This document shows positions 29,507 through 53,833 of a stretch of DNA of 64,000 nt, piece after piece. The position numbers and the translations under genes are program-made. How positions within the stretch are numbered: position 1 is the first letter of the stretch; every line of letters starts with the position of its first letter. The stretch lies in contig NMRA01000280.1 of the NCBI GenBank assembly GCA_002633005.1, positions 388,080-452,079 of the forward strand. Reading direction: 5' to 3'. This DNA is from Phoronis australis. Lineage: Eukaryota; Animalia; Phoronida. The notes beneath the pieces were generated by a model. That model saw only the letters and a program-made list of their open reading frames with translations, did no database searches and was not told where the DNA came from.

Positions 29507-32500
29507 TCAATGTTCAAGTATATTTACTTCTGGACAATCGTCATAGCAATCGATTGGTTTATCCAAAAACTCCCAAGTAGGAGCTACATTTGGACCGGTC
29601 GATGAATCCACCAGTGGATCGATTGGTGTCGCAACCATTCTTGATCCTTTTACAAGTAGTGTTTCCATTAGACCGACGCAATGTTTCATCGCGTCGGGGT
29701 TTCCGTTAAATGAGGTATGCAAACACTTAAGCATTTTTGTGTATACGTTATTAAATGAGTTGGACAGTCGGCGAGCCACCGAATTGTATTGATATTTGTT
29801 GGTTTTTGGATTGTCCATAATTGGCCAGACGCCATCTTCATAAAATGGAATCTTACTTCCGTCATATGCGTACGTCACATTGCACATCATTAGCTTTGCC
29901 TCTCCGCACACATACCTGTCTTGTTCGTGCACAAAAGGAACGTCACGAGCGGTGTAATATCTTTTGGTACGATGTAACGAATTCACACATTGTTCAGCGT
30001 TTTCAACGCGCAGATACTGGCCGTGTACAATTTGTGAGAACTTATAATAATGTGATAACAATCTCGCTTGAGATGTTTTTGAGGAGACCAGTGGATTGCA
30101 AGCGTCAGAACCTTCACCTTCTTGGGAAATTTGCTCTATCGCACGCGTAGCATCAGATATGCCAGAAATTTTAAATGGTTTGTCAACAACCCTAGTGTAC
30201 CAATGAGAAACTCCAATCTGTCGAAGAGGATCACCGTTGAATATCGTTCCACCCTTCTTCCTTGCTTTGTCCTCAAGTTCAACCAACGCCTTCAACACCA
30301 AGAAAAAGTGGAGAACATGAATTCAACACTGCAAGTATCAAGTACAAGTATACAACTGCCAAACTTGGCAACAATTGCATGTTCACCTTCCCCTTTCATG
30401 CACAGAATTGTGAATTTTAGCAAAAACTTGGTGTTGTAAGTTTTTGTCACCGGCATTCAATCACACTGCATGAGTACCTGTATTTTATTTGTTGGAGAAA
30501 AGGTAAAAATCACCGAGTGGCTCAAAAAGCATGAAAACGTTGTATAGGTCCTTTGGACTCGTGCTTCGGAATCTACGCCAACATGTTTGTAGTGCAAAAG
30601 GCGCGGCCAGAACTCACTGCCCTAACTAACCCTCCGCCTCAGTGAGTAGCATTGGGGAACATTGTGTGATCACATGTATCCAGTCGGAGCATCCGGGCAT
30701 TCATTGAATAACGACCCGTTTGATCATTCGGGCAGGATACGTACTGTGCCCGGCTAGTAAAAGCGTTTTACTTACGTTCTGTATTGTTTTGTAAAATTGA
30801 CCAATTGTCTTCGGGTAGTGCTCCTTTTCACAGCGTGATCTCTCACTTACTCGTTTACACCGGCTTACAATGACATCTTCTGGTTGCTCTATTTCCATGA
30901 AAACGTTTTGAATGTAGTCCACAGTGAGTTTTTCCAAAGTGATCACCAAGTCTGGCCTCAGCCCCCCTGGAAGACCATATGAGGGATATACCGGTGTCCA
31001 TTTAGACTCATTAAGGACAGGCTTGCCTCCAATGGCGTTTAGAATGTTCGCCACTAAGGTCATATGACTCATCTCTTGAACAGCGATGACTTTCAGAATA
31101 TCATACACCTCCCTGTTTCTACCCGGTTTAATGGACATTAGTCCAGTGAGATACGGTGGGATAGTCGAAAGCTCCACGAACAGTGCTTTCTGTAACATAA
31201 CTTCAAGGTCAACTTTTGCCGGGTGTTCTGGTACACCAAGTTGTGGATTGACCAACCAGTTGTTGATCGTTTGCAGGGTGTATCTGGATACATCACGTGA
31301 TACTGGCATGTAGTTGCCATCAGAAACGGGTAGGTTCATAGACATGCGTATTTTGGGGATGTTTTCCACGACACTGTTGTACTCCGCCAGGTTGACAATA
31401 GGTCTCATAACTGGATACATTGCGGCGTATCGAGAGAATATAGGCTTGATGTCTTTGTGCCATGTCGGGTGTTGTATCACCTTTTCCTTGAAGAACAGAT
31501 AAATTACAATGCAGGCATCTCCGCTGAGCACAAAACGTTGAGACTCGGGGCTCTTGTAGCGCACTAACAACCAGTAAATCTAGCAGAAAAACAACAAAGA
31601 AATCAGGTTGGTACAAGAATCACTATAGAAATAGCTCGTTCTTTTAAATATAGACCCTCACTGTTTTTATCAGTTTGCAACCCAAGAGCTTCATGAATAA
31701 ACCCTACATTTCATAAAACATAGCTTTTAGGGTGAATGTGGTTTTGTTACTTTCAAAAAATTAAGAGCTGGCGTTTATTTCATTTCTTTTGCTTTTACTT
31801 AAGTCTATGATGTAATATGAAATGGCATGGAATGAAAAGATCATCGTTCCCAGTATGAAATGGAACTAAACAGAACAGGCGCAAATTTAGAAATAACTGA
31901 CACAAAAAGTAATGCGTTTCGGACGGTAATGCTTCTTTATTAAAAAACGGTCTACTTAAGGACAACTCTTCTAAACATATGAATTTCGTTTTGAATTTCC
32001 CTAAGAGACTTTTGTCATTTTTATATTGTTTATTTTTCTTTACCAGTCGGCATTCTGTTTAGTTATATTTTGGTGTGTTTTGTGATAAAAGGATTCTTCG
32101 TGAAACAATTTCCAGTTCCATACCTGGGCATTTGGCAGCTGGTTTGTTGTCCTATTTGAGTTTGGTTTCTTCCCAGGATCTCCAGCTCTGAACGCTATGC
32201 TCGCTTCCCCTCTTTCGTCAGTGACGCCATCAGTGAAGTGCAGCGCTCCTTTGGGTTCATTGATCACTCCATCACCATCGGCAAACTCATTAGACATTGA
32301 GAAGGTTACGTTTTTATTTTTGTCTTCCTTCGAAGCAAAATTTAAACTGATGTGGACATCTTTTAATGGTCTCCCAAACTGGTAAGCATAGAACGTGACA
32401 TTCCATTCGTCGTCCGGGTGTTTGTAAAACGTGTAGTTATGTTGTACTCCAACAACTATGCCGTCAGCCGATTCTTCAAGAAGTATGTCATCCATATTCC

Positions 32501-35500
32501 TAACAACGCCTAGAGGACTAGATTGAATTAGTGGAAGCATAGTTTCTTTCACCTCAAAAGGTTGGACACCCGACGTCGCTCTGTACCACTTATCTCGCTT
32601 GTAATCAAGATGCCCAACACGGATCATTCCACTTTTTGTCAAAATAGTTAAATACAATTTACCATTGTCCATATAGTCTGACGCAAAGCGCCCCCTAATG
32701 TCACATTTTAGACTGTTTCCAAAATCAACTATTACTAGCTTTCGATCTTCGTCGACAATAAATGGCGCATCAAAGTATTTGCTGTGCTTTGGTCCCAATT
32801 TGTTTCTCATTACACGTGCAACCTTAAACATGTGACACGAATCCTCGCCATGCGGTCCTATAATACCAGCTACACGTCCGTGCTTGTAATTAACGTCCTT
32901 TTTGTTCTTGTTAAACAAATCTACATTAAATTTAATAGATAACGTGGGCGCGGTTGACACTCCAGCGGTAACATTCATGAGCTCGTGAACGAAACGGGAT
33001 TTGCGCAGTCTTTTCTTTATTGATTTCTTCCACTTTATGTTGGTGAGAGTTGACTTAAAAAATCCACCGAGTCTGGAATCAAAGATTTGATCTGGCACCT
33101 TAAGCCAACCGTGCTGATAGGCAGCCACTGCAAACCGACCGGTGAGTACATCTCCCAGTGTTATGGTCCAGCCCCAAATTTGAGACATGCTCATAACTGA
33201 GGTATCCATGTCCACTAATTTAGGATTACTTAGATGTGTTCCTACAAAGACAATATTATTTCAGTTCGAAGGGACAAAAACCTTGTTTTATCATGACTAG
33301 ACAACTCAATTGTTAACAAGAATGTGCCATAAAGCCCCGCAATTAGGCGTCTAATTATGTGACCGCGCCTAGTTGCGGCCATAGGCGCGTGGCTTTATAT
33401 GTGGGGCACTTGAGTAGAGCTTGCATTAATTACGGTGCTCCAGATATAGGTGCACCTTCGATGCTTCAAAAAACACCCTTAGTTTGCACGTGGATTTTAG
33501 TGCAAATTCTTTTCTGATGACATACTGCCGACGAAACTGCAGTGCTTGTTTTTCTGGCCAAGAAAACAAGTCTATGGCAGTTTCAGTCCCCGTAGCTCTT
33601 CTTGACCACATTGGTCCTCGATCTGTGACCCTCGCTTGTACCTCTCTTCCCATATCCAACCAATGAGCTAAATACTGAATTTAGCTCATTGATCCAACCA
33701 TCTGTAAACTATCCTTGTCAGGTTAAACAATCGATTGCAGTTAAAACGTTGTAGCAGTGAAGTTTATTCTTTCGAAGAGGAGATGAACCAAATGTTATTT
33801 TATACGTAAATCGTTATTGAAAATAAAACTTGTAATGAGTTTTAAATTTTATATCTTTAGAATTTAACTGTTCCTGTAGTCACCCAGAGGGTCACTAACG
33901 CCACACGCTGTGTGAAATAAAAAGCATTTAGTGTATTTTTTAAAATCATTCAAGGCGCGTCTATGACCGGCGCAAGCGCCTATACGCGGGACATTTGATT
34001 AAAAAATCTTGCGAAAAAAGGAAGTGGTTCTCATATAGGTGCACACGCCTAACTGAGGGGCTATACGGCAACGGCGTGAACCTTTGAAAGTCTAGGCCAT
34101 TAAGCGTAACCAAAACGTCGTGTTCAACACAACACGTCTTTATCTATCTATCTGTCCGTCCATCCGTCCGACCGAACGTCCGTCTGTTTGTCTACATCTA
34201 TATCTATGTCTATATATGTATATATTTTTCATAGCGTATTTTTCTTTAGAAATCGTAATTTTACTTTCGTAAATTAAAGTGATATACTTGTCTCGACCGC
34301 CTCAGTTGATACATATACTTTGACTATTACCTACCGGCCACAGCTTGCCCTATGAGTGCATCAGATTTTGGATTTGAGGTGCACGTTGCGTCACTGTAAC
34401 ATACTCTGGTAACAACGACATCCACAAAGTCCCAGTTGTTTCCACCCTGACAAAGATTTTGAAAGGACGTTAGTCCAACGAACATCTCTCAAAGAATAAA
34501 ATAGGGCAAGCTTGCTCCATTATATTTCTCAGAAGATTCGATGCTTTGACAATAATCATTAGTTTTCATATCAAGTCCCTCCAACTTTGGATTTTCGTGC
34601 GTTCAATACTTGTCAGTCCTTATAAATATGACAGGTTACAAAGAAATCCTATGCCCGCGGTCTAACCTCTGCACTTTAAAAGGTTACTAAACCATGTTTT
34701 GATGATGTCAACCAATCCTCGTTCTATCACCTGCTGATGTAACCATGGCGTCAGTCTTGAAAGATAAAAGCAGAATAAAAAAACTCATACCACCTATTTC
34801 GCAAATTGCACATTACAGTCCTTGATAGGTGGTATTTTCCCACAGTTGCCGTGTAATTCGCTAAAAGCGTAGGTCAACCTTTAGTCTACTTTCACATTTA
34901 GCAGATTTTTTAGGGTTGTCGAGGGTTTCGGAGTATTAGTTGGTTTCAGAGAACTAGACGGGAAAGTCGTTTTTAGTATCTGTTCATAGGTCAAAACCAG
35001 GTTTGGTATCCTTTTAAACAATACCAAGACTATGACTGGCGGACAAGAGAACTTGGTCGTAGCTGTTATCCTCCCTTTTTGAGAAGATAGCTAGACTTGA
35101 TCATTGGTGATCTAACTGTTTGATTTTTAAAAAAAAACATTATCAGCGTTCTTACAAAATATCTTTCGGCTTTGTAATCACTTTCAATGACTAAACCGCA
35201 TTATCAGAAGTTTAAATTCCACGTTGAACTGAATGCCTTTTCAGTAGTCTGTACAGGTTCCACCTATGGAACGGAAATTTCAACGTCCATGCAAGGAGCG
35301 GTTTGTATTTGAAGAACGTCTTGGACAACATAGACTACATCACGACTTTGACTTACTTCGTAATGGCAAACCATGTCGACGATGTCCCCTACGCCGTTGC
35401 ACAGGGTATGCTGACTGAAGTTTCCCATGTCGTAATTTTTAGCGTGGTTGTTAGCTGTAGTGAAGTCGGAATAAAATTTACCGGCGAAGTGCAGTCTAGG

Positions 35501-37084
35501 AAAATCCAGATAGGAAGATACAGTGAAGCCTGGGCGCAGAACACACGAATCTGGAACATAGGCATTATTGGAAGCATACATGTTTTGAAAACGCAGATTG
35601 TGCAGTAAAAATTAACATTTCCCCCTTGTACGCATTCAAGTCCATGGTAAGGTCCAGAAAACTAGTTTTCAAAAACCAATAATTGCAAATTGCCAATTCA
35701 CTTCTCTCCAACCCGGTCACGATAAAAAATTGAAATATGGGATCTAATACCACAGATTGTCCGTTGTGGGGGAAAATGGTGGTTTAAAACTCGAGCCCGA
35801 AAAGTATATTTGCGCCAGTAATTTACGAACCTAATTTACGGGCGACACTTTTAGCCCTGACCCAGGGGGAAAGCTTAGACCGCGACTCGAATTTAGAGGT
35901 GCTCCCATGGAAACATGACCCTGTGCCTGGAGATTGATGATCGTGTTTGGTCGATGAGTGGGTGGAATTTCGGGGTGCGTGTCTAGGGAATGGAGATTCA
36001 AGGGATACTGGCTGAAATTTAGACGCTCGATTATGGAATTGTTTCCACCTAATACAATATCTCTCAATCTTTGACATTCATCATCTGGTAATTTCCATTC
36101 TGATCGAAATGATTTCAAGAGGAAGTAATGCAAATTCAGTAACCAATGCTTCAAATCTTTCTTAAGCAAAACTACCGTGGCTCATAGTCTACAAATCCCA
36201 ACCACATATCTACAGTACCTGTTCATGTACTTGAGTGATATAACTTTTCATAAACAAGACAATGCGATACTCCATTTTTGTGGATAATACACGTTTAATC
36301 ACCTTCGTCACTCTTGTCCGGGCAGTCAATATGTCCATCACAAATCTTACTAGAATCTACACAGGTGTAGTCTTTACAAAGAAATCCTGAACACTTTTGG
36401 CTTGGCTGCGTTGACGTTTCTACAATATTAGGTTTTGCTGAAAAGAAATTTGTATACCCTTTAAAATATTTGTGCAAGTCCCAGTAAAACCGAAGTAGTG
36501 ACAAAACAGTGTATCCATAATTGAGGGAGACCCAGATGGACATATAAGTGTCTTAGCCTTCATCATCTGGGTGAAAAACTTTTCTCTCTGGCTGGAAAAT
36601 TTACCACCCAAGTGATAAACATTTCTACCTTGGATTAGAGTAATTCGCACGCGGACGGTAACGCATTTACACCCAGGCAGAAATGTTTTCCAATCGAGTG
36701 GTAAAAGACAACGATACAAAAGACTTGAAATAGTCACAAGATTGAATGTCATTTTTGGACCACCGTATTGATTAAGTAAAGTAAGAAATTCATTGCTGCT
36801 GTCCCGCATTCTCTCCTGGTAGATGACACACGATTGGCAAAACATCGCTCGTATTATAGCACCTCTCTCGAACACGCATGTTTCTTTCAAACAATCCTCT
36901 TATCAGACGTACAATTTTTCCTGTTGCCGGCTTTGAATAACTGCTGAATCTTTAGATGGAGGCCTTCTTCTCCCTGGCTAACCACGGCGAAGAGTATGAG
37001 GGTGGACACTTGTAAGAGGAACACAAGGCATAATAACACGTGAATCCATGTGTGTGTCTCGTATTCCTTGTCTCTTCGTTCCAT
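29507..37084 (-). CDS. Signal anchor + LDLa + VioB/RebD-like (iminophenyl-pyruvate dimer synthase-like, C-terminal ferritin-like) fusion protein, paralog 1, 1105 aa; exons 37084-36913, 36437-36303, 35550-35357, 34446-34335, 33241-32124, 31579-30776, 30289-29507
   Basis: All six introns GT-AG with compatible phases (1,1,0,1,0,0); 3318 nt open. Motifs: SYLDFPRLHFAGKF...TANN (VioB-type start), KLVDMD....SQIWG, PTW.KDI.PIF..Y..MYPVM...YMPVSRD.S, LQKALFVELSTIPPYL, QEMSHM....NILNAIGG.P, FMEIEQP, TIGQFY, EGEG, SHYYKF; six-Cys LDLa ending SDEDSC. Confidence 0.88.
33324..34070. mobile_element. MITE in intron 4 of paralog 1 (orthologous copy 50082-50833 in paralog 2)
   Basis: tgccataaagccccgcaattaggcg ... 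cgcctaactgagggggctatacggca inverted termini with repeated cgcctaattgc units. Confidence 0.65.
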
Positions 37085-38040
37085 GGCCTGCGTCTAAATG
37101 GAAAAATTTGATGAGTGAACATTATTTACTTATCGATTTCCTAATCAGATGCATCAATTTTATCAACAATTATGAATTACCCCAAGTCAATAGATGTATT
37201 TCAATCACAAAGAACAGATCCGAAAGTTCAAATAATCTAACTTCATTTGCTTATTGACTTAAGGTCGCATTAATGTCATTGCAATCGGTAGCAGTACGTG
37301 TTTGGACGTTTCTGACACGAGAGACCATCAGGCAGCATCCGGGTGTTCTATCCACTTTATTTGAACTTGCTTACCAATTCTATATCAAAAAGACCAAAAA
37401 TAACCCCACCAGTCGATCATCTGTCAACACCCGGAATCACTATCTGTCGATATGTTAATTGACCTATCCCAAGCTCCGCCTCCTTTCGTAATGTCGACTA
37501 ACAAACTATAAGTTTTACCCGGCAACGTGTTGTTTGTTGGGTAAAACGGCGGCTTGGAAACGAAGGTGGGCCAATAATGCTGCGTTCTACATGGTCAGTT
37601 AAGCCGTCACTCAAAATCCTGGCGATAGGTCAATTAGCTTATCTCGAATTACGAACATTTATTGGTAGATTCAAACTCCATACAATCGAGACAACAAATG
37701 GGGGTGGGCTCCAGTGATCATTTTGAAGAATAATATTAGATTGAATCTGTCCTTCCAATCTTCAATACGGGGTTCCCCAAGGTGTAAGAACCCTAGAAAT
37801 GTCATTGAAAGTTTGAAAAGATTATAAAAATAATATTCAACTTCATATGAAGCACTTTAACTGTCGTGAGGTCTTTGACAGCCAGCCTTTAATTCCCCGC
37901 CTTGTGCAAGTAAAGTTGCTTACCACGTTTTTCATGATCTACGTCTGACCAAATTATTTCTTTAATAGCTTTTACAATTACCGAAGGTATTCAAGGTATT
38001 CAAAGGGAATTTTTGTATCGCTGTCAAAGATACTATACTA

Positions 38041-40740
38041 GGCACAAGATGTTTTGTAGCAAATGCACGCGAACGCATTTCGAGGACAACTGTCCTACCA
38101 AAGGCAAAACATGTCACGCTTGTGGAACTTTTGGCCATTTTTGAGACAGCAACACCACTATCAAAAGCAGAGACGAGGACTATCCCGATGGCACCAAGGA
38201 GGACACAAAAATGTGCATAGAACTGAGGAGGACCATATGGCAACAGATATGATGGAACAATGCAGTATTAAAGATGTGTTCTGTATAAATTGTATCCCAT
38301 ACGCGTTGAATCTATCGAGGGAAATACGGCCATGTAATAAAGTTTTCCGTATTCACCTCCCACACTACTTCAACATTGACCTCTGACATGGAAGTTCAAA
38401 AGGTAGGTCAATATCGACTCGACGTCGATAGCCGATTCGATCACCAAACTTTCGGCAATTAGTTTAAAGTAATACAATTATAGCAGTGTAAATAACGCTC
38501 AACATACCATCAGGTCTCAATCGTAACATCTGGAACAGGACTATTAATTAAATGGCAGTTCTGTCTCAGTTTTAATTTGCTAAATATTTTATCGTCTGTA
38601 ACTCAGGCGCCGATTGCTCGGTAACTACAATATCAAATATTGTTGTTATTTAACAATTTTCAGGAGATGTTACAAGTTCAATGAAAAGTTATCCTTGTTT
38701 CCATCTTCATTGTCTCTTTTCAAGTAATAAATCGTCACATTTAAAACTGTTTCTTCGACTATACAAAACTTGCAGCCTAACGCGCAAGTACATACATATA
38801 GGATGTAGTGATCCGTCAGGTGAACAGTCTGAGTGAAGTATTAAAAATATCTGCCGAAAAATGAAAGAAACATAAGCATTCGAAGCGTATGGAATAAATA
38901 CAAAACGTACCTTGATTGCGGTCTCGGTCGATACGCAGAATAATGTTTCGTAGGATATTACTTCATGTACGCCACTCTCGGTACGTAATGTGTATTTATC
39001 TACATCATTCGTTATCTTACTTACCTATAATTTCATTCACTCTGTATATTTTGTTAATGCCTATTTTCCACTTCGTCGATTTGTCTATGTATTTTGTCCC
39101 TATTTCCATATATGTTACTTTTGTATCTTTAGCCTTACATTTTAGTCCAATCCGTTACTGCCACGACAGCAGGGTGAGGTCACACCTGGCAGCTGTTCCA
39201 GCACTTGGGAAAACGTACCTCCAGCTTTGGCCCCTGGAGTTAGGGTTGAATATCCGGCTGACAGCACTCTGTAACATGTGCGCACCCAGCCTTCAAAATG
39301 GAGGGGCTCGAATTCCTGACGTCGTGGACCTTTTGCTACCAAAAGAGCGGGCAGACTAAAAAGAAAAAAATGGGAGCACCCCTGTGTTTCTTTAATGGAC
39401 ATTTGTCCCATTTTCTTGGACTTTTTGTATCTCGGGGGCGGACCGTTTCGCCTAATGGGGGCGCGCATGCAGTTTGTGGAATCTACACAATACCTCCCTT
39501 TCCTTCCTTATTTTTATTTCGGTGCGTCACTGCGGATTGGCATGAGTTGTCTTCACATCTCTTGTGCTCATCTTTCCAGAGATCATTACTTTTTGTTTAC
39601 TTATTATTTTGCTCTCATATTTCATAGTAAATGACCTTTACTTCACCTACTGTATATACGGTCTCCCTTTTATTTCTGTAAACGGAGCTTGCAACGCACC
39701 TATCATTTTTGGGACATACTTTGAACATAAATTCAAGTACAAATTCTGATGTTTGGAATGTCGCAGTACAAGTAGGTAAGTCACACTTATCCTTCACAAT
39801 TAATACTTTTGTAGATTGCAATATATTGTCACTAGCTACACTGAGAAAGTTAGGTAGCGCAATGTTGTGATCAATGGTATTCATGGCAAACCACAGAAAG
39901 CATGTGGTGAAATTGTACCGCCAGTTGTTTATAAGAATAAAAGACACACGCTACATTTGTTAGGACGTGATGACGGTGTGAAACTAAATGTAGTCCAGAG
40001 AGTGTTTGGAGTGAACTCTCAGAACCAAAATGCAAATCATGATGCCTTTATCAGAAAATAAAGTGATGTGTTTGAAGAAACAATTGGCTGTATTCCAGGC
40101 GAATGCGACATTCAGGTAGATTCTTCTATATCGGCAGTAGTTCACCCTCCCAGACCAGTTCCAGCTGCTACCAGAGTGCAGGTAAAAGTGGAATTAGACC
40201 ATCTAGAAAGATGTGGCATTACCGCGAAAGTCACCCAGCCAACACCATGGGTGTCACCACTAGTATGTGTTAGGAAACGCAATAATAGAGTCAGGTTGTA
40301 CATTGATTCCTTTAGCTTAAATAAGGCTATTTTGCCTGAAAACCACCAAATGAGTTCAATTGATGATATTGTACTTAAATTACATGGGAGTAAAGATTTC
40401 AGTGTACGTGTTGCAAACATGGGTTATGACCATATCAGGCTGAGTGAGCAAAGTACTTACTATACAGCATTTAATACCCCATTTGGGCGACACAGGCATC
40501 TTAGACTGCCCATGGGCTTGGAAAGTTCCCCGGGAAATTTATCAAAAGGCTATGCAAAATATGTTTGGCAACATTTCTTTGGGAGTGGAAATTGTGATGA
40601 ACGATATTCTGATTCACGGCAAAACAACCGAAGAGCATGGTGAACGGCTAATAGCTGTAATGGAGATAGCCTGAAAAGGATTATAATTAAATCTAATTAT
40701 AACTAAGATTAGTCAACCTCAAATTAGTTATGTGCGGATG
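38041..40740 (+). mobile_element. Degenerate Ty3/Gypsy LTR retrotransposon (gag zinc knuckle and pol RT fragments, interrupted)
   Basis: 38050-38145 reads CSKCTRTHFEDNCPTKGKTCHACGTFGHF; 40068-40674 has PTPWVSPLVCVRK..NRVRL.ID...LNKAI, TAFNTPFGR...RLPMGL, MNDILIHG.T.EEH; frameshifted. Confidence 0.85.
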
Positions 40741-41939: not shown

Positions 41940-42135
41940 GTACAATACAATACAGTACAATTCAATACAATACATTGCAATACAAAACAATACAATGTAA
42001 TGCAATGCAATTCGATACCATACAATACAATACAATCCAGTACAGTGCAGTACTGTAGAGTACAGTAAAGTGCAATACAATACAAAAAATGCAATACTAT
42101 GATACAATACAATATACTGATACAATACAAGTAAA
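41940..42135. repeat. (TACAA)n pentanucleotide microsatellite, imperfect
   Basis: tacaatacaatacagtacaattcaatacaatac... visible directly. Confidence 0.9.
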
Positions 42136-42329
42136 CAATACTGAGAAGGAAATTATTATATACTATTCATACATTGTACAAAGTGGTGCCATTTATCAAC
42201 ACTCAACAGAATACAACATGTTGAACAAATTGTCAATGCGTAAGTGACTACATTTTGTATATCTACTTGTGTGTGCGTGTGGTCGAGTATGTGCGTATGC
42301 GTAAGTGACTACATTTTGTATATCTACTT

Positions 42330-42860: not shown

Positions 42861-43881
42861 GTTTCTTGAATTAACGACTGCAGACTACATTGTTTTAAAT
42901 CATGTGCGGAAGCCCGCAAAGTTTTACTCCACTTTGGTAGAAGTATCCTAGATGGCTCTCAACAGTAATTCTTCATTCGATTAGCTTGCACAAAAATATT
43001 TGCCAAAGTTTTATATTTTTCAACGCCTAATGGAAATCTTGCTGGAAACAACGGAAAATTTACCAAATGTTTTTATATGATGTAGACACAATACAAAGTT
43101 GATATTCTACATTTTCTTAATATGTATATTTCGGAGAAATTTGATCAAATTGTCCCTCGTAATTAGGTGAAAATTTAACATATTTTGTAAAAAAGTCAGG
43201 TTCTGATGGTTTTGCAAATGTTTTTCAGTGTGACGAAAATTAGTGTTTTTCATAAGTACTGGGACGTTGTTTTTGGTATAAGTACACCTATCGGCATTTC
43301 TAATTGCCGAAGTATCGTTTACTTTTGCACGCAAAAGCATAAACATTAAACCTGAGTTCGAAATTTTAGATATTTTCGGAGTATTGAACCTTCGGAATAG
43401 TGAACCTTCGGAATAGTGAACCTGTAGAATAGTTGCCTGCACCTATTTCCAGCAATGTAAGTAACACGCACCAATACAACCAGATAAAAAATTTCGTCAA
43501 GTCATTCTCAGCCTAAAAAATTCCGTCCGAGTTTGTAATGAGGTGTAATCAATCATTTACGCACGCCTGATTTGAAAGTTTGGCGGAAGGTAACGCGAGA
43601 ACGTTCTGTTTCTGGACCACATTACATGTCCGAATCTGAGTCCCATTCTTTACGAGTAACCCTTCACGACATCCTCATTTCAGTCAAGCTCCGTCAAGGG
43701 CCTTAAGGAAATCTCTTCAGTGTCGACCTTTGCAAAATAGCAAAGGTCCACCGTTACAGAAATTCGAACCACCCCTTGCGCAATGTTGGCAACGGGCCTG
43801 CAATAGGCGCGTTCGCAGAGATTTTATTCTTGCACTTCATTATATTCAAAGTATCACATGAACTCCAAATACGTTACTACT

Positions 43882-46800
43882 TCAATAATCCAGCATATTC
43901 AATTCTGGACAATCGTCATAGCAATCGATTGGTTTATCCAAAAACTCCCAAGTAGGAGCTACATTTGGACCTGTTGATGAATCCACCAGTGGATCGATTG
44001 GTGTCGCAACCATTCTTGATCCTTTTACAAGTAGTGTTTCCATTAGACCGACGCAATGTTTCATCGCGTCGGGGTTTCCGTTAAATGAGGTATGCAAACA
44101 CTTAAGCATTTTTGTGTATACGACATTAAATGAGTTGGACAGTCGGCGAGCCACTGAATTGAATTGATATTTGTTGGTTTTTGGATTGTCCATAATTGGC
44201 CAGACGCCATCTTCATAAAATGGAATCTTACTTCCGTCATATGCGTACGTTACATTGCACGTCATTAGCTTTGCCTCTCCGCACACATACCTGTCTTGTT
44301 CGTGCACAAAAGGAACGTCACGAGCGGTGTAATATCTTTTGGTACGATGTAACGACTTCACACATTGTTCAGCGTTTTCAACGCGCAGATACTGGCCGTG
44401 TACAATTTGTGAGAACTTATAATAATGTGATAACAATCTCGCTTGAGATGTTTTTGAGGAGACCAATGGATTGCAAGCGTCAGAACCTTCACCTTCTTGA
44501 GAAATTTGCTCTATCGCACGCGTAGCATCAGATATGCCAGAAATTTTAAATGGTTTGTCAACAACCGTAGTGTACCAATGAGAAACTCCAATCTGTCGAA
44601 GAGGATCACCGTTGAATATCGTTCCACCCTTCTTCCTTGCTTTGTCCTCAAGTTCAACCAACGCCTTCAACCAAGAAAAAGGAGAGAACATGAATTCACC
44701 ACTGCACGTATCAAGTACAAGTATACAACTGCCAAACTTGGCAACAATTGCATGTTCACCTTCCCCTTTCATGCACAGAATTGTGAATTTTAGCAAAAAC
44801 TTGGTGTTGTAAGTTTTTGTCACCGGCATTCAATCACACTGCATGAGTACCTGTAATTTATTTGTTGGAGAAAAGGTAAAAATCATCGAGTGGCTCAAAA
44901 AGCATGAAAGCGTTCTATAGGTCCTTTGGACTCGTGCTTTGGAATCTACGCCAACATGTTTGTAGTGCAAAAGGCGCGGCCAGAACTCACTGTCCTAACT
45001 AACCCTCCGCCTCAGTGAGTAGCATTCGTGAACATTGTGTGACCGCTTGTATTCAATGAGAGCATCCGGGCATTCATTGAATAACGACCCGTTTGATCAT
45101 TCGGGTAGGATACGTACTGTGCCCGGCTGACAGTTTCCCCTGAAATTGTTTCTGGCCTGTATAAGGTTTTGAGATTGAACATTTATTTTTCATATTGCAA
45201 TCAAATGTCACGCTGCAATCAGTGTAGGAGCATGCTTTTGTTTTTTGCGGTTAGGATTCAAATGCCCAGCTAGTAAAAGCGTTTTACTTACGTTCTGTAT
45301 TTTTTTGTAAAATTCACCAATTGTCTTCGGATAGTGCTCCTTTTCACAGCGTGATCTCTCACTTACTCGTTTACACCGGCTTACAATGACATCTTCTGGT
45401 TGCTCTATTTCCATGAAAACGTTCTGAATGTAGTCCACAGTGAGTTTCTCCAAAGTGATCACCAAGTCTGGCCTCAGCCCCCCTGGAAGACCATATGATG
45501 GATATACCGGTGTCCATTTAGACTCATTAAGGACAGGCTGGCCTCCAATGGCGTTTAGAATGTTCGCCACTAAGGTCATATGACTCATCTCTTGAACAGC
45601 AATGACTTTCAGAATATCATACACCTCCTTGTTTCTACCCGGTTTAATGGACATTAGTCCAGTGAGATACGGTGGGATAGTCGAAAGCTCCACGAACAGT
45701 GCTTTCTGTAACATAACTTCAAGGTCAACTTTTGCCGGGTGTTCTGGTACACCAAGTTGTGGATTGTCCAACCAGTTGTTGATCGTTTGCAGGGTGTATC
45801 TGGATATATCACGGGACACTGGCATGTAGTTGCCATCAGAAACGGGTAGGTTCATAGACATGCGTATTTTGGGGATGTTTTCCACGACACTGTTGTACTC
45901 CGCCAAGTTGACTATAGGTCTCATAACTGGATACATTGCAGCGTATCGAGAAAATATAGGCTCGATGTCTTTGTGCCACGTCGGGTGTTGTATCACCTTT
46001 TCCTTGAAGAACAAATAAATTACAATGCAGGCATCTCCGCTGAGCACAAAACGTTGAGACTCGGGGCTCTTGTAGCGCACTAACAACCAGTAAATCTAGG
46101 AGAAAAACAGAAATCAGTTTGGTACAGGAATCACTCTAGAATAGCTCATTCTTTTAAATATAGACCCTCTCTGTTTTGATCAGTTTGCAACCCAAGCGCT
46201 TCATGAATAAACCCTACATTTCATAAAACATACCTTTTAGGGTGGATCTGGTTTTGTTACTTTCAAAAAATTAAGAACTGGCGTTTTTTCATTTCTGTTG
46301 TTTTTACCCTAGTATATGATGTAATATGAAATGGCATGGAATGAAAAGATCATCGTTCCCAGTATGAAATGGAGTAAACAGATCACGCGCAAATCTAGGT
46401 ATAACTGACACAAAAAGTAATGCGTTTCGGATGGTAATGCTTCGTTATCAAAAAGGCGGTCTTCTGAAGTATAACTGTTCTAAACATCTGGATTTCTTTA
46501 TTTTGAACTTGTGACTTTTATATAGCCCATGATGACATTGATGATGCTCTTGATGCATTGTACAAGTTATTTAACAGTATTTTAAACGAATATGCTCCAT
46601 GGAAAACTAGACGTGTGAAGAGATTACGTCAGCCTGAATGGTTCAGTGATAACATTTTTGAAGCTACAAAGCTCAGGGATAGTTTTCGTAAGTGCGGAAA
46701 TTATGAGGTCTAGAAATCAGAGCGAAATCATGTTGTAACAATGATTAAAAAGGCTAAGAGTGACTATTACTCTTCACTGATCAGTAGTAATCTCAAAAAT

Positions 46801-48751
46801 TCCAAAGTGTTATGGAAAGTCATCAGACAAGTTGCTCTTAAAGAAAAAAATCCTCATCACCTGCCATATTAAAGACTGATGAGAAGTGTGTTCATGATAA
46901 ATTTCAGATTGCCAATAATTTTAACAAATTTTTTACTGACATAGCTAGCAAACTTACTCGTGATCTTAAAGATGCACACGACACTCATAAAGATTTGATT
47001 GACTTTGTTAGTTCCAGAGTTGAAAATGACATAGGTTATGATATTCCTCTGGTAAATATGGAATTTGTAAATAAGTTCTTAAATGGTCTTATTCTAAATA
47101 AAGCCACTGGAATGGATGATGTCATCTCCAAAGTTTTGAAACTAGGTCATGAGGAGCTGACACCATCCATCACCTTTCTTTTAAACCATAGCATTAAAAC
47201 TTCCAAGTTTCCTAGTTTGTGGAAACTTGCAAAAGTACCCCTTTACACAAAGGCGGTGCTACTGACAATGTAAACAATTACAGACCAATTTCAATTTTAC
47301 CGGTCTTGTCTAAATTGTTGAAAAAGCATCTTCACAATACCTTTTATTCATTTTTGACTGAGCATGATTTAGTAGTTGCATCTCAGTCCGGTTTCAGAAG
47401 TGACTACTCATGTGAAACTGCCCTCATTAATATTGTTAACGGCTGGGCTCAGGGTGTATATAGTGGTCACAATGTTGTTGTAGTATTTTTAGATTTTAAA
47501 AAGGCTTTTGATCTCGTTGATCATAATATTTTCTAAGCAAATTGTTAATTTACAAGGTGGGCAAGGTCTCCCTAGACTGATTTAAATCATATCTCTGAGA
47601 GAGGTGCCAGGTTGTATCCCTTGGTGGACATCTGTCTGAGTCCCGAGGTATCACACACGGTGTTCCCCAGGGATCCGTCCTGGGACCTCTGCTGTTTTTA
47701 CTTTTTATAAATGATCTCTCTTCAGTCTGCGAAAACACGGTTGACATGTATGCAGATGATACTACTGTTGTGGCGAACTCGCTGATCGCTGTAAAGGACA
47801 GACTCCAGTCTGATCTGAATAAGGTTGCTACCTGGTGTACTGATAATAAAATGGTAATTAATGCTGAAAAAACAAAATGTACGAGTATTGCCTCAGAGCA
47901 ACGGCATAGTAGAAGTAATCGTGAGCTTAACCTTGCTATTTCCAATGTACGCCTCAAATATGTTGACTGAAAAGTTATTAGGTGTTACTGTAGACAAGAC
48001 CCTCAGCTGGTCTAGCCATATAAATGGGACTGTGTCCAAAATTAGGCAGCGCCTTGGTCTTCTCCGGCGTATATCACCATTTCTTCCCACAGAAGGGCGT
48101 CTGCAATATTTCAGCGCTTGTGTATTCCCTCTGTTCGTTTATTGTAGTACAGTGTGGTCAGGATGTAATGCAAAATTAGTTTCCTCATATGTTTAACAGA
48201 CTGGGGTGGCTCCCTATTGAGAAATATTTTATTTATAGGCGTCTGTGTATGATGCATAGGTGCTTTCACGGTAATGTACGGACTTATCTATCTCGTAATC
48301 TCGTACTTGTTCGAAATAGCCACCAGATCAGGACAAGATTTTCTGCCTCAAACACTTTGGTTTTGTCCAGACACAGAGCATCGTTTTATTCCAAGTCCTT
48401 CTTTATTCAGACCATCAAACAGTAGAACAATTTGCCTAATAGTCTTAAGGATTCTGACTGTTATGATAACGTCAGACACCACCTCGTGGTCGTCATAGAT
48501 GTCCCTTCTTTTTGTCTTTCCAATATATTTACCAAAATTTTTTTATTTATTTATTTATCTTTAATTCAATTTGTTTATCCAATTTGTAAATACTATTTTA
48601 TTTAATGTATCTTATTTTATCTTAATTTAATCTGTTTATCTAATTTAATTTTAATTAATTTAATTTCTTGCTGCAGAGGACCATGCTGGATATTAGCCTT
48701 TGGCTAAAGCATGTTTTACATTTATTGTATTTTTATCCTCTTTAAATAAAG

Positions 48752-48784
<33 letters not shown>

Positions 48785-51700
48785 GTTCATTTTCCTTAGC
48801 CAGTCGACATTCTGTTTAGTTCTATCTTCGTGTGTTTTGCTATGAAAGGATTCTTCGTGAAACAATTTCCAATTCCATACCTGAGCATTTGGCAGCTGGT
48901 TGGTTGTCCTATTTGAGTTTGGTTTCTTCCCAGGATCTCCAGCTCTGAACGCTATGCTCGCTTCCCCTCTTTCGTCAGTGACGCCATCAGTGAAGTGCAG
49001 CGCTCCTTTGGGTTCATTGATCACTCCATCACCATCGGCAAACTCAGTAGACATTGAGAAGGTTACGTTTTTATTTTTGTCCTCTTTCGAAGCAAAATTC
49101 AAACTGATGTGGACATCTTTTACTGGTTTCCCAAACTGATAAGCATAGAACGTGACATTCCATTCATCGTCCGGGTGTTTGTAAAACATGTATTTATGTT
49201 GTACTCCAACAACTATGCCGTCAGCCGATTCTTCAAGAAGTATGTCATCCATATTCCTAACAACGCCTAGAGGATTGGATTGAATTAGAGGAAGCATAGT
49301 TTCTTTCACCACAAAAGGTTGGATACCCGACGTCGCTCTGTACCACTTATCCTGCTTGTATTCAAGATGCCCAACACGGATTATTCCACTTTTTGTCAAA
49401 ACAGTTAAATACAGGTTACCATTGTCCATATAATCTGAAGCAAAGTGCCCCGTAATGTCACATTTTAGACTGTTTCCAAAATCAACTATTACTAGCTTTC
49501 GATCTTCGTCGACAATAAATGGCGCATCAAAGTATTTACTGTGTTGTATTCCCAATTTGTTTCTCATTACACGTGCAACCTTAAACATGTGACACGAATC
49601 CTCACCATGCGGTCCTATAATACCAGCTACTCGTCCGTGCTTGTAATTAACGTCCTTTTTGTTCTTGTTAAACAAATCTACATTAAACTTAATAGATAAC
49701 GTGGGCGCGGTAGACACTCCAGTGGTAACATTCATGAGCTCGTGAACGAAACGAGATTTGCGCAGTCTTTTCTTCCTTGATTCCTGCCACTTTAAGTTGG
49801 TGAGAGTTGACTTAAAAAATCCACCGAGTCTTAAATCAAAAATTTGATCTGGCACCTTAAGCCAACTGTGCTGGTAGGCAGCCACTGCAAACCGACCGGT
49901 GAGTACATCTCCCAGTGTTATGCTCCAGCCCCAAATTTGAGACATGCTCATAACTGAGGTATCCATGTCCACTAATTTAGGATTACTTAGATGTGTTCCT
50001 ACAACGACAATATTATTTCAGTTCGAGGAGACAAAAACCTTGTTTTATCATGACTAGACAACTCAATTGTTAACAAGAATGTGCCATACAACCCCGCAAT
50101 TATGGGCACGTGCCTAATTGCAGGACCACGCCTAATTGCGGGCCTTAGGCGCTTGCCCTAGATGTGGGGCACTTGAGTAGAGCTTGTGTGGGTTATGGTG
50201 TTCCGGATATAGGCGCACCTTCGATGTTTAAACAACACTACTAGTTTGCACGTGGATTATAGTGCAAATTCTTTCTAATGACATACTGAACCTGTATTGC
50301 TTGTTCTTCTGGCCAGGAAAAAAGTCTACGACAATTTCAGTCCCAGTAGCTCTTTTGGACCACATTGGTCTTCGATCTGTGACCCTCGTTTGCACCTCTC
50401 TTCCCATATCCAATCAATGAGTTAAATGTTGTATTTAACTCATTGATCCAACCATCTTTAAACTGTCCTTGTCAGGTTAAACAATCACGACTCGATTGCA
50501 GTTAAAACGTCATAGCAGTTAACTTTATTTTTTCGAAGAGGAGATGAACCAAGTGTTATTTTATACGTAAATCGCTATTGCAAATAAAGGTTGTAATGAA
50601 TTTTACAACTTATCTTTAGAATTTAACTGTTCCTGTAGTCACCCAGAGGGCCACTAACGCCACACGTTATGTGACATAAAATGCATTTAGTGTATTTTTT
50701 AAAATTATTCAAGGCGCGCATATAGCCGGAGCACTTCCTGCGCCTAACTGCGAGACATTTGAGTAAAAAATCTTGCGAAAAAAAGAAGTGGACCGCATAT
50801 AGGTGCATGGGCGTAATTGCGGGGCTATACGGTAATGCGCCAATCTTTGAAAGTCTTGGCCACTAAGTTTAACAAAACGTCGTGTTCAACACAACACGTC
50901 TTTGTCTATCTATCTATCTGTCTGTCCGTCCGTCCGTCCGTCGGTCCGTCCGTCCGACCGAACGTCCGTTTTTTTGTTTTTTTAATGTTTATTACGAAAT
51001 CTTCAGAATACAATGAATATACATAACCCAGAAAGCGCCAAGAGGCATTAGAACTGGGTAAAAAAATACAAATAAGTCTATATATAATGATTATATACAA
51101 ATACATAAATAAAAAAAACTGATGTTAAGAATACAATGATATATGACAACGAATGAAAATAACGTCCGTCTGTTTGTCTATATCTATATCTGTCTATATG
51201 TGTAAATATTTTTCATAGCGTATTTTCTTTAGAAATCGTAATTTTACTTTCGTAAATTAAAGTGATATACTTGTCTCGATCGCCTCAGTTGATACATATA
51301 CTTTGATAATTACCTACCGGCCACAGCTTGCCCAATGAGTGCATCAGATTTTGGATTCGAGGTGCACGTTGCGTCACTGTAACATACTCTGGTAACAACG
51401 ACATCCACAAAGTCCCAGTTGTTTCCACCCTGACAAAGATTTTGAAAGGACGTTAGTCCAACGAACCTCTCTCAAAGAATTAAATAGGGCAAGCTTGCTC
51501 GATTATATTTCTCAGAAGATTCGATGCTTTGACAATAATCATTAGTTTTCATATCAAGTCCCTCCAATTTTGGATTTTCGTGCGTTCAATACTTGTCAGT
51601 CCTTATAAATATGACAGGTTACAATGAAATCCTATGCCCGCGGTCTAACCTCTGCACTTTAAAAGGGTACTAAGCCATGGTTTGATTATTTCAACCAATC

Positions 51701-53833
51701 CTCGTTCTGTCACCTGCTGATGTAACCATGGCGTCAGTCTTGAAAGATAAAAGCAGAACAAAAACTGATACCACCTATTTCGCAAATTGCACATTACAGT
51801 CCTTGGTGGGTGGTATTTTCCCACAGTTGCAGTGTAATTCGCTAAAAGCATAGGTCAACCTTTAGTCTACTTTCACATTTAGCAGATTTTTTAGGGTTGT
51901 CGAGGGTTTCGGAGTATTAGTTGGTTTCAGAGAACTAGACGGGAAAGTCGTTTTTAGTATCTATTCATAGGTCAAAACCGAGTTTGTTATTCTTTTTAAA
52001 CCATACCAAATATAAAGCCCATTGCTGGCAGACAACAAAAGAACTTGGTCCCAGCTGATTTCCCCATAGTGCGACATTGTTCCTTGCGCCATTTGAGAAG
52101 ATAGATAGACTTGAGTATTGGTGATCTTACTGTTCGATTTTTTAAAGCCCATTGTCAGCGTTCCTACAAAATATCTTTCGTCTTTGTAATCACCTTCAAT
52201 GACTGAACTGCATAATAAGAAGTTTAAATTCCACTTTGAACTGTTCGCTCATTCAGTAGGCTCTATAGGTTCCACCTATGAAGCCCGTATGGAATTTTCA
52301 ACGACTATGCAAGGAGCGGTTTGTATTTGAAGAACGTCTGTGACAACATAGACTACATAACGACTTTGACTTACTTCGTAATGGCAAACCATGTCGACGA
52401 TGTCCCCTACGCTGTTGCACAGAGTATGCTGACTGAAGTTTCTCATGTCGTAATTTTTAGCGTGATTGTTGGCTGTGGTGAAGTCGGAATAAAATCTCCC
52501 GGCGAAGTGCAGTCTAGGAAAATCCAGATAGGAAGATACAGTGACGCCTGGGCGCAGAACACACGAATCTGGAACATAGGCATTATTGGAAGCATACATG
52601 TTTTGAAAACGCAAATTGTGCAATAGTAGTTAACATTTCCTCCTTGTACGCATTCAAGTCCATGTTAAGGTCCAGAAAACCAGTTTTCACAAAACCGATA
52701 AGTGCAAATTGCCAATACACTTCTATTCAACCCAGTCACGATAACAAATTGAAATATGGGATCTTAACCACGGATTGTCCGTTGTGGAGGAAAATGGTGG
52801 TTTAACACAAGAGCCAGAAAAGTATATTTGCGCCAGTAATTTACGAACCTAAATTACGTGCGACATTTTTACCCCTGGCCCACGGGGAAAGCTTAGTCCG
52901 CGACTCGAATTTAGAGGTGCTCCCATGGAATCATGACCCTGTGCCTGGGGATTGATGATTGTGTTTGGTCAAGAGAAAGTAATTCAAATTCAGTGAACAA
53001 ATGAATACTTCAATTCTTCCTTAAGCAAAACTACCGTGGCTCATAGTCTACAAATCCCAACCACATGTATACAGTACATGTTCATGTACTTGTATGATAT
53101 AACTTTTCATAATCATGACAATGCGATACCCCCTTTTTGTGGATAATACATGTTGAATCACCTTCGTCACTCTTGTCCTGGCAGTCAATAAGTCCATCAC
53201 AAATCTTACTAGAATCTACACAGGTGTGGTCTTTACAAAGAAATCCTGAACACTTTTGGCTGGGATGCATTGACGTTTCTGCAATACTAGGTTTTGCTGA
53301 AAAGAGATTTGTAAATCCTTTAAAATATAAAACGTTTCGGTCTGGGTGGAAAACATTATTACCCAAATGATAAACATTTCTACCTTGCTGGAGAGTAATT
53401 CGCACCCGGGTGGTAATGCATTTACACCCAGGCAGAAATGTTTTCAATCGAGCGGCAAACTATGACAATACAAAAGACTTGCAAAGTCACAAGATTTAAT
53501 GTGAGTCATCTTTTCACCACCGTATTAATTAAGTAAGAAATTGATTGCTCCTTTCCCACGTTCTCTCTCCCAAATGACACGATTGGCAAAACATCGCTCG
53601 TATTATAGCACCCCTCTCGAACACGCATGTTTCTTTCAAACAATCCTCGTATCAGACGTACAATTTTTGCTGTTGCCGGTTTTGAATAACTGCTGAATCT
53701 TTAGATGGAGGCCTTCTTCTCCCTGGCTAACCACGGCGAAGAGTATGAGGGTGGACACTTGTAAGAGGAACACAAGGCATAATAACACGTGAAGCCATGT
53801 GTGTGTCTCGTATTCCTTGTCTCTTCGTTCCAT
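43882..53833 (-). CDS. Signal anchor + LDLa + VioB/RebD-like ferritin-like fusion protein, paralog 2, 1105 aa; exons 53833-53662, 53296-53162, 52568-52375, 51429-51318, 49998-48881, 46095-45292, 44664-43882
   Basis: Exon lengths (172,135,194,112,1118,804,783) and splice sites match paralog 1; open frame throughout; the same motifs are conserved. Confidence 0.88.
46510..48785 (+). mobile_element. 5'-truncated CR1/L2-group LINE in intron 5 of paralog 2
   Basis: RT motifs NYRPISILPVLSK, QSGFR...SCETAL, LDFKKAFDLVDH, GVPQGSVLGPLLF, MYADDTT; stops and frameshifts; AATAAA plus (TTA)n tail at ~48745-48785; absent from paralog 1. Confidence 0.92.
50082..50833. mobile_element. MITE in intron 4 of paralog 2 (shared with paralog 1)
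   Basis: tgccatacaaccccgcaatta ... taattgcggggctatacggta inverted termini; colinear with 33324-34070. Confidence 0.65.
50970..51160 (-). mobile_element. Short retroposed 3'-end fragment with A-tail and 9-bp target-site duplication
   Basis: Flanked by aacgtccgt (50961 and 51161), single copy in paralog 1; ~75 bp is the reverse complement of 59525-59601. Confidence 0.75.

Follow-up and report, generated by a model that had tools for sequence, protein, structure and literature searches.

What lies at this locus? The window analysed here, a 64-kb stretch of a Phoronis australis contig, carries two copies, A and B, of a seven-exon gene on its reverse strand (Table 1). Their spliced models, each of 3318 nt and 1105 amino acids, contain no internal stops, and all 12 introns of the pair have GT-AG borders. 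Splicing thus bears out the gene structures, frame length and outer ends given in an initial annotation made from the sequence alone, and every motif quoted there (the N-terminal start, YP.M...YMPVSRD.S, ELSTIPPY, EMSH, EGEG and SHY) is found in the models. Between the copies, 110 of 3318 nucleotides and 55 amino acids are different; with a dS of 0.076 and a dN of 0.023 (dN/dS 0.30; synonymous excess p=3e-9), their coding frames are shown to be under purifying selection. In three stranded RNA runs and one contig run bearing the same species label, the spliced transcripts that the annotation had proposed to look for are present: in A as in B, RNA joints are exact at introns 2, 3, 5 and 6, i.e. 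at four of the six introns, and at introns 1 and 4, where RNA depth is below about 2, no joint is listed. In the stranded runs, the exon reads match the strand of the gene. Integration in the host contig, introns and expression thus occur together, and the window gene is a real, spliced and expressed animal gene; contamination was rejected on the grounds of the introns, the spliced reads and the animal neighbour genes.

Table 1. Features of the locus, in window coordinates
Feature	Position	Strand	Evidence
Copy A, 7-exon gene, 1105 aa	29507..37084	-	open spliced frame, GT-AG
Copy A exons	37084-36913, 36437-36303, 35550-35357, 34446-34335, 33241-32124, 31579-30776, 30289-29507	-
Copy B, 7-exon gene, 1105 aa	43882..53833	-	open spliced frame, GT-AG
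Copy B exons	53833-53662, 53296-53162, 52568-52375, 51429-51318, 49998-48881, 46095-45292, 44664-43882	-
Hydrophobic helix aa 14-36, B (same in exon 1 of A)	53726..53794	-	hydropathy peak 2.8
Exon 2 (phase 1-1), B: stalk and LDL-receptor class A module (A: 36303-36437)	53162..53296	-	PF00057; exon 2-3 joint in RNA
Exons 3-5, B: beta-rich N-half of VioB-like enzyme (aa 115 to ~610, into exon 6), Ig-like domain last	48881..52568	-	HHalign to VioB/StaD N-halves
Intron 4, B, phase 1 in Gly205, position common with L124 and L136 (A: 33242-34334)	49999..51317	-	predicted joint
Small helical domain aa 612-690, B, predicted cytochrome-c-like, Met635 and Met668	45757..45993	-	invariant columns, structural model
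Small helical domain, A	31241..31477	-	same domain as in B
Ferritin-like domain PF12902, B, aa 706-933, divided by intron 6	44401..45711	-	PF12902, 3HL1 structural match
Ferritin-like domain, A	30026..31195	-	identity with B
Duplicated unit	28848..57108	.	28848-37994 matches 43255-57108 at 88-95%
Decayed non-LTR retroelement, intron 5 of B, absent from A	46500..48772	+	gap in A/B homology; RVT_1 at 47216-47967

Both copies belong to a duplicated unit that weaker collinear blocks lengthen leftwards. While the description of two intact tandem copies holds for this assembly, the reads of other individuals are a mosaic of A and B letters, and as read counts on A equal those on B, the same reads stand behind both. 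There is thus a substantial, if lesser, probability that A and B are not fixed paralogues but allelic versions of a single locus placed in tandem by the assembly, or else a recent duplication that is still polymorphic. Compared with A, the transcript contigs of another individual show 11/783, 8/440, 10/601 and 5/214 differences, and compared with B 19/783, 5/440, 27/601 and 3/211, so that the nearer copy switches along the gene. Likewise, 20 of the 32 exonic variants listed on A carry B's letter, as do all 29 variants checked on B that of A (29 among the 40 rows shown, the 11 others, seen in the contig run only, having been omitted). Fixed paralogues are favoured, however, by the absence of an N gap between the copies, by about 4 kb of unshared inter-copy sequence, and by the composition of B, into which two retroelements have inserted and which has no counterpart of the receptor-like gene to the left of A.

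Protein architecture and candidate cofactor sites

The protein layout proposed initially requires an addition, as it overlooked the hydrophobic helix, either a signal anchor or a long signal peptide, and the LDL-receptor class A (LDLa) module. The latter scores 31.9 bits with PF00057 (cut-off 24.1), has its acidic motif, and places its cysteines at positions 73, 78, 83, 90, 96 and 105, the sixth being encoded by exon 3. A hydrophobic N-terminus is found in all 13 named animal proteins but in none of 27 bacterial-type proteins, which begin at the N-terminal motif without a leader; cysteines 189, 981, 1034 and 1049 occur in 12 of 21 animal-type rows as against 0-2 of 79 bacterial rows, and the window proteins hold seven to eight N-glycosylation sequons. 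On such features, the window protein is predicted to reside at the cell surface or to be secreted; helix and LDLa module set it apart from the soluble, leaderless enzymes VioB, RebD and StaD.

For the remainder, models predict a beta-rich N-terminal half that includes an Ig-like domain, then a cytochrome-c-like domain, and finally a ferritin-like bundle in which Glu and His residues are conserved. In the model of a Ptychodera homologue, the Ig-like domain at the end of the N-half is matched with a Z-score of 8.8, and the C-terminal domain matches CC_0557 (PDB 3HL1, PF12902) over 254 residues (Z 27.2, rmsd 2.2), a stand-alone protein of 317 aa without the N-half and the small helical domain of the animal protein. 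Foldseek matches of the whole model to complement C3 and alpha-2-macroglobulin (TM ~0.1) were dismissed as generic beta-sandwich similarity. PF12902 is recognized in exon 6 with 134.5 and in exon 7 with 44.6 bits (cut-off 22.3). Candidate metal ligands of the ferritin-like domain are E713 and, near-invariant across all three groups compared, E746, H749, E808, E904 and H925.

In 73 small helical domains, those of VioB and StaD-like proteins included, the only invariant columns are M635, M668, P669, R672 and L686. A structural search with residues 600-700 against 48,161 chains returned c-type cytochromes as all seven best matches; the best of them is modest (Z 6.5, rmsd 3.1, 78 aligned residues), a Z below 8 being able to reflect a common arrangement. 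Among these class I cytochromes, PccH (4RLR), FoxE (5MAB) and YhjA (9QDT) reach Z-scores of 6.5, 5.3 and 3.5. For the small domain, Foldseek gave an E of 5.7, a second structural search nothing at a Z of at least 2, and Pfam and PDB profile scans nothing meaningful; the covalent heme motif CxxCH is absent from it. Its late Met-Pro presumably falls where class I c-type cytochromes carry their axial methionine, and, judging from the spacing, the second invariant methionine would lie near their histidine position. Met635 and Met668 are a candidate bis-Met heme b site for the whole VioB/RebD/StaD class. PMC9705886 describes VioB as a heme b protein that acts as a catalase and whose structure has not been solved, and the PDB chains searched include no solved structure of a full-length member of the class. 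As a fully bis-Met heme would not itself bind O2, the catalase activity of VioB would have to stem from the dimetal site or from a labile ligand.

Kinship with VioB, RebD and StaD

The initial annotation had described a full-length VioB/RebD-like enzyme, a view that a lack of VioB-family similarity outside the ferritin-like domain would have contradicted. Such similarity is found: the N-half aligns with the N-halves of VioB and StaD at 99.5% in HHalign (E 4e-23, 401 columns), and 13 of 14 VioB/StaD N-halves match at E 3.3e-8 or better, with reversed controls below 0 bits. By sequence comparison, the homology to the VioB/RebD/StaD superfamily is genuine over the entire protein, but it is remote, and the closeness had been overstated: identity to VioB is ~22%, over residues 617-940 only. 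With the VioB equivalog model TIGR04492 (cut-off 1250 bits), five full-length animal homologues score 11-27 bits, compared with 1908 bits for VioB and 827 for a StaD-like protein; when the window exons are scanned singly, exon 3 yields 10.9 bits and the others nothing. The spliced window protein has no match to an 8-row VioB profile and scores 25.8 bits with a 7-row StaD-like profile, and in IQ-TREE, VioB and StaD lie ~1.8 substitutions per site away from the remaining sequences. Shared with VioB, RebD and StaD are thus length, domain order, N-terminal motif, the two invariant methionines and the ferritin-like Glu/His set. In contrast, identity extends over 320-430 residues only, scores are far under the equivalog cut-off, and the window protein adds the hydrophobic leader, the LDLa module, extra cysteines, sequons and introns. 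No flavin-dependent L-Trp oxidase (VioA/RebO/StaO) was found within the 64-kb window, although pathway genes of animals need not be clustered.

The closest kin of the window protein form a bacterial family that is uncharacterised. It is 32% identical to the window protein over residues 115-1078 (E 1e-148), has nearly all conserved motifs in common with it, and its members are either fused proteins of ~900 aa or split into an N-half and a ferritin-like (PF12902) gene. The VioB-like family is distributed over many bacterial phyla, and of the two leading Atlas clusters, one is 89% and the other 100% bacterial. Neighbours of this sister family include ebo genes (21/80 loci), aminotransferases (18/80), P450 enzymes (12/80) and, near one locus, a LodA-type pair; a StaO-like oxidase, present at 8/8 StaD-like loci, was seen at 0/80 (58 of these being at least 15 kb long). 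Exon 5 retrieved 357 relatives in a full HMMER search, nine in an alignment search and none in a word-indexed search, and it has no match in PDB sequences or in the Atlas.

Distribution and origin of the animal family

Named homologues come from Oscarella, Montipora, Lingula, Ptychodera, Saccoglossus, Glandiceps and two Branchiostoma species, that is, from a sponge, a coral, a brachiopod, hemichordates and amphioxus, five animal groups beyond the window's own; the hemichordates have several paralogues. A broad and vertical distribution across eukaryotes had been named as evidence against a transfer; a broad and apparently vertical one is seen across animals but not outside them: all named eukaryotic matches, including both species sourced from EukProt, are animals, with non-animal eukaryotes sampled passively only. 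FastTree supports the animal group with 99. A tree of 47 chosen rows without outgroup (LG+G4 rather than a mixture model) separates animals from uncharacterised bacteria (SH-aLRT 99) and supports sponge-type (97), cnidarian-type (99) and bilaterian (96) subgroups, in a branching that broadly matches the animal tree. The window groups with Lingula within the bilaterians (96/94 and 98/95, IQ-TREE), and in both trees, with and without outgroup, hemichordates weakly join these two rather than amphioxus. With VioB/StaD as outgroup (46 chosen rows, again LG+G4), the animals are unresolved at their base, while an AU test (p 0.46) leaves their monophyly tenable. Rows omitted from the trees were L115 (start motif unmatched), the truncated L093-L108, the partial loci L033, L044, L053, L069, L075 and L079, P0055 (replaced by P0197) and P0073 (same as L012). 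As animals appear as sister to the sampled bacteria and not nested inside them, with the root position unfixed in these trees, the direction of transfer follows from distribution only.

Gene structure provides a further link. A phase-1 intron five codons past the conserved Gly200 is common to the window and the coral-type locus L136, with a matching acceptor in L124. The naive chance of such a shared position is 0.008. The position falls within a loop where a one-residue indel occurs, so that it agrees when counted from the left anchor and is one codon off from the right. With homologues that are broad and apparently vertical in animals, the family is an old one rather than the domesticated transfer of a single animal suggested initially. 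Of that proposal, the bacterial origin stands as the likeliest history, and we consider a single ancient entry from bacteria before the cnidarian-bilaterian split probable.

A recent, lineage-specific transfer into this animal, followed by intron gain and tandem duplication, would agree with the near-equal full-length identities of the best animal (33%) and bacterial (32%) matches, and with the absence of three of the window's four core introns from coral-type loci. It is nevertheless highly improbable and largely refuted already: the gene is not restricted to one animal lineage, the window and Lingula fall inside the bilaterian group, a profile of the 13 named animal proteins outscores one of 79 bacterial rows on the window (899 versus 758 bits), the intron position is shared with coral-type loci, and the GC3 of 0.44 resembles that of adjacent genes. 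Also improbable, if less so, is an older eukaryotic inheritance that was lost in most lineages, without any transfer into animals. The sister position of the animals under an unplaced root would suit it, as would the PF12902 genes mentioned for fungi in PMC4417212; against it speak the purely animal set of named eukaryotic matches, although the searches were not designed for protist homologues, and the bacterial composition of the top Atlas clusters. An ancient entry would join others reported, such as rquA (10.64898/2026.04.08.717022) and the microbial-type enzymes of deuterostomes (PMC4729200), which likewise combine a bacteria-like enzyme, a patchy marine-invertebrate range and intron gain; unlike those, the VioB-like family extends to sponges and corals, and its animal proteins have apparently been rerouted into the secretory pathway.

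The animal sequences are already in databases, labelled 'uncharacterized' or by automatic domain, as the initial annotation had anticipated, and it is the synthesis that appears new. Our search, to whose scope most subscription papers were external, found no literature on animal members or on the cytochrome-like heme site. There was no match in 12 of the 16 supplementary files of PMC6040629, no mention of ferritin or VioB in the searched parts of a thallusin preprint and PMC5133447, and no naming of a VioB-like animal family, by the terms searched, in the main text and two supplementary files of PMC4729200.

Possible chemistry

VioB-class enzymes begin the synthesis of violacein and staurosporine; it is in bacterial gene clusters that the chemistry of VioB, RebD and StaD is known, and VioB and RebD are heavily used in synthetic biology. 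What could an exported animal relative do? That it is a secreted oxidase of this superfamily with heme and a dimetal site, old and probably of bacterial descent, has, as a whole, about an even chance in our view, and its part as a coupling oxidase is put forward somewhat more tentatively. The enzyme would act extracellularly on small aromatic compounds, coupling or oxidising them: a heme b, bound non-covalently between Met635 and Met668, would serve as electron relay, the dimetal site would activate O2 or H2O2, and an arylpyruvate-, imine- or phenol-type substrate would undergo one-electron oxidation to radicals that join by C-C bonds, as in VioB and RebD. Tryptophan imine is probably not the one fixed substrate, and the pigment or defence chemistry envisaged initially is a possibility.

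A non-biosynthetic role is doubtful but deserves consideration, namely that of an extracellular catalase, peroxidase or ferroxidase guarding surfaces or aiding iron uptake. The ferritin-like bundle also matches Dps, bacterioferritin and Mn catalase (Z 9-11), VioB has its catalase activity, and a general function would suit retention from sponges to amphioxus; fungal ferritin-like PF12902 genes adjoin H2O2-producing LodA oxidases, according to PMC4417212, which recalls the LodA-type pair at one sister locus. However, the 500-residue N-half, kept in all members, would be superfluous for such chemistry, and the sister genes recur in biosynthetic settings. Strict VioB/RebD-type activity, in which the imine of indole-3-pyruvate or another arylpyruvate, supplied by a secreted L-amino-acid oxidase, is dimerised to chromopyrrolic-acid-type or diarylpyrrole alkaloids or pigments, is unlikely. 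It could draw on the N-half homology, on every candidate cofactor ligand being common with VioB and StaD, and on the several hemichordate paralogues; moreover, secreted L-amino-acid oxidases occur in animals, and bis-indole and diarylpyrrole alkaloids have been obtained from sponges, hemichordates, ascidians and molluscs. The distance to VioB and StaD in the tree, the low equivalog scores and the missing StaO-like oxidase, at the sister loci as in the window, argue against it.

The coupling-oxidase reading has a farther-reaching form: with secreted amino-acid oxidases, a VioB-class enzyme of the marine invertebrates' own, older than the cnidarian-bilaterian split, would build diarylpyrrole or bis-indole alkaloids and pigments that are generally attributed to symbionts; throughout the class, moreover, the heme would sit between two methionines, as heme b, in a cytochrome-c-derived domain that lost its CxxCH. 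Taken in its entirety, this is a long shot. Still, the VioB-like gene is a concrete candidate for marine invertebrates making some aromatic alkaloids themselves, and likely gives many of them an oxidative chemistry of their own, so far unstudied; if an intron-bearing, exported branch has indeed been kept from sponges to amphioxus, animals possess a very old enzyme family that has been overlooked. The two-methionine domain, in turn, makes the location of the heme in VioB and RebD directly testable.

Two spliced genes among animal neighbours

What do the two gene copies, A and B, amount to as genes? The motifs quoted in the initial annotation are all present twice on the minus strand in a six-frame translation, and splicing by coordinates yields the two seven-exon genes that it had proposed, each 3318 nt long and encoding 1105 aa; all 12 introns of the pair are GT-AG. 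RNA bears this structure out, as three stranded runs and one contig run join the exons exactly at introns 2, 3, 5 and 6. Each joint is covered by 2 to 6 reads with the runs summed, introns 2 and 6 being also spanned by a contig; no joint is listed for introns 1 and 4 in these same runs of low depth. The RNA level of the gene is low. Neighbouring genes are of animal type, comprising an SLC10-like fragment, a WH1-like protein and pieces of retroelements (table).

Features of the window around the two gene copies
Feature	Position	Strand	Remarks
Gene copy A	37084-29507	-	aa 1-115 at 37084-35512
Gene copy B	53833-43882	-	aa 1-115 at 53833-52530
Duplicated unit	28848-37994 vs 43255-57108		no gap found between the halves
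413-aa open frame	7434-8672	+	weak WH1/EVH1 match, E 0.002
SLC10 bile-acid-symporter-like multi-exon gene fragments	about 10300-15800	-	PF01758, E 4e-5, just under cut-off
Single 506-aa open frame	25511-27028	-	resembles by eye a divergent seven-helix receptor whose third loop is long; Pfam search without a match at E 0.1; not present on the collinear flank of copy B
Retroelement fragments, lying between the copies and upstream of them	40062-40640, 54149-56678, 57387-57818		RVT_1, endonuclease
Short repeat in intron 3	34680-35020, 51680-52030		many RNA reads on both strands; abundant dispersed element
497-bp tandem duplicate, 99%	62888-64000		across a single N at 63503; likely a scaffold-join artefact

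The copies differ by 110 nt and 55 aa (dS 0.076, dN 0.023), with a synonymous excess far from neutral (p 3e-9), and by 4-11% of aligned columns in their introns. The enzyme part holds 47 non-synonymous and 51 synonymous differences, the leader, stalk and LDL-receptor class A (LDLa) module (aa 1-115) 11 and 1 (Fisher p 0.005); taken alone, the substitutions in aa 1-115 are indistinguishable from neutral (p 0.48). Because transcripts from other individuals change between A-type and B-type letters along the gene, the pair may represent two alleles or a recent, polymorphic duplication, a reading that we regard as possible rather than probable, and the question leaves the main result unaffected.

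Relation to VioB and to a bacterial sister family

The description of the product as a full-length VioB/RebD-like enzyme stands at the level of the superfamily, but not for VioB proper. For comparison, VioB was taken as the proteins scoring above the cut-off of TIGR04492, and the StaD-like set as Streptomyces proteins, for which 8 of 8 loci also encode a P450, a StaO-like oxidase and an FAD monooxygenase. The window protein is about 22% identical to this VioB/StaD set along residues 617-940 (E about 1e-6) and 32% identical to an uncharacterised bacterial sister family along 115-1078. The superfamily claim holds since the N-halves are homologous too in profile comparison (99.5%, E 4e-23; 13 of 14 VioB/StaD N-halves match), and the five animal homologues scanned with TIGR04492 fall outside VioB proper.

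The sister family is found across many phyla, in fused and split forms. In DNA fetched around 80 of its loci, a StaO-like oxidase occurs in none, EboE in 21, an aminotransferase in 18 and a P450 in 12. The ebo genes adjoin the family in about a quarter of loci (among them L008, L011, L014, L020, L023, L026, L027, L041, L062, L066 and L071). The ebo genes make thallusin, a synthesis in which an oxidative step lacks an assigned enzyme, and the text consulted does not mention the VioB-like family (10.64898/2026.05.21.724671); the bacterial sister family is a candidate for this step. An actinomycete subgroup (L022, L029, L040, L047, L049, L050, L059-L061, L063-L065) sits with P450 and aminotransferase genes, in some loci also with glutamate mutase, NRPS and glycosyltransferase genes, possibly representing an arylpyruvate-coupling pathway without an amino-acid oxidase. 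Genes for LodA/GoxA-type oxidases or LodB-like flavoproteins lie near the family in L001 (1498-4559), L018, L056 and L075.

Animal range, origin and introns

Named homologues occur in Oscarella, Montipora, Lingula, Ptychodera, Saccoglossus, Glandiceps and Branchiostoma. In a FastTree of 125 rows, 15 named-or-window rows and 7 unnamed ones form one group (support 99). An IQ-TREE of 46 rows places 26 uncharacterised bacterial rows on one side (90/99) and recovers the bilaterians (98/95) and the window protein with Lingula and one unnamed row (96/94), the long VioB/StaD branch joining weakly among basal animal rows; constraining the animals together is 0.6 log units worse (AU p 0.46). Judged by its place in the tree, the host is probably a spiralian. 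Without this outgroup, animals and bacteria split with an SH-aLRT of 99, and sponge-type, cnidarian-type and bilaterian subgroups appear. We infer a single origin that predates the cnidarian-bilaterian split and probably the sponges as well. Since the family ranges widely among bacteria and every named eukaryotic match is an animal, we further infer transfer from bacteria to animals; in the trees the animals are not nested among the sampled bacteria.

Several sponge- or cnidarian-type members (P0016, P0017, P0019, P0020, P0022, L146) are each encoded in a single long frame without a break (830-1100 codons), which means that most of the introns arose lineage by lineage. At the position of window intron 4, two intron-bearing coral-type metagenome loci have a phase-1 intron, in L136 five codons past Gly200, with the corresponding acceptor in L124. 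Because the window loop is one residue shorter, the positions coincide when counted from the left and miss by one codon when counted from the right; the naive chance of coincidence is 0.008, a figure that leaves out splice-site preference. Of 149 new proteins from a HMMER search, 18 start no more than 60 residues from the motif that lies just past intron 4 and have no start motif, as expected of exon fragments, and some may be contig ends.

The sequences themselves are already in databases, as uncharacterised animal proteins, one auto-labelled 'iminophenyl-pyruvate dimer synthase domain'. A search of the accessible literature turned up no account of the animal proteins or of such a heme site; the family may be listed in the supplements of HGT surveys.

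Predicted architecture and chemistry

The protein carries a hydrophobic helix (residues 14-36), an LDLa module encoded by exon 2 and, from residue 115, the enzyme part. As the hydrophobic N-terminus is present in 13 of 13 named animal homologues and 0 of 27 bacterial-type proteins, and several Cys columns are specific to animals, the animal branch is predicted from sequence to be lumenal or extracellular. The LDLa module, carried by 0 of 5 animal homologues scanned, looks like a later addition. AlphaFold models the Ptychodera homologue P0001 (pLDDT 88, pTM 0.81) as a beta-rich N-half closing with an Ig-like domain (Z 8.8), then a small helical domain, and finally a ferritin-like bundle that matches 3HL1 (Z 27.2, rmsd 2.2, 254 residues); of the window protein, the small domain alone was modelled (pLDDT 83.5).

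Across 73 small domains, those of VioB and StaD-like proteins among them, the sole invariant residues are Met635, Met668, Pro669, Arg672 and Leu686. Against 48,161 chains, the top seven matches of its model are c-type cytochromes, with PccH at Z 6.5 (rmsd 3.1, 78 aligned) and FoxE at Z 5.3; CxxCH is absent from the domain. In Foldseek, too, a cytochrome c domain ranks first (E 5.7), and re-examination of the three Foldseek rows yielded nothing. LodA and GoxA structures appear as weak matches (Z 2.7-2.9).

VioB has a heme b cofactor and no solved structure (PMC9705886), and RedD, RebD and StaD are heme proteins coupling two imines (PMC10851217). We propose, as a moderately strong prediction, that a non-covalent bis-Met heme b would serve as a relay beside a ferritin-like dimetal site, with E713, E746, H749, E808, E904 and H925 as candidate ligands. 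Plain peroxide or iron handling is a rival reading that we consider rather unlikely, and true tryptophan-imine coupling is another, somewhat less likely still. By analogy, the animal enzyme would most likely oxidise and couple small aromatic substrates outside the cell, and it may be linked to lamellarin-type or hemichordate alkaloids and to secreted amino-acid oxidases.
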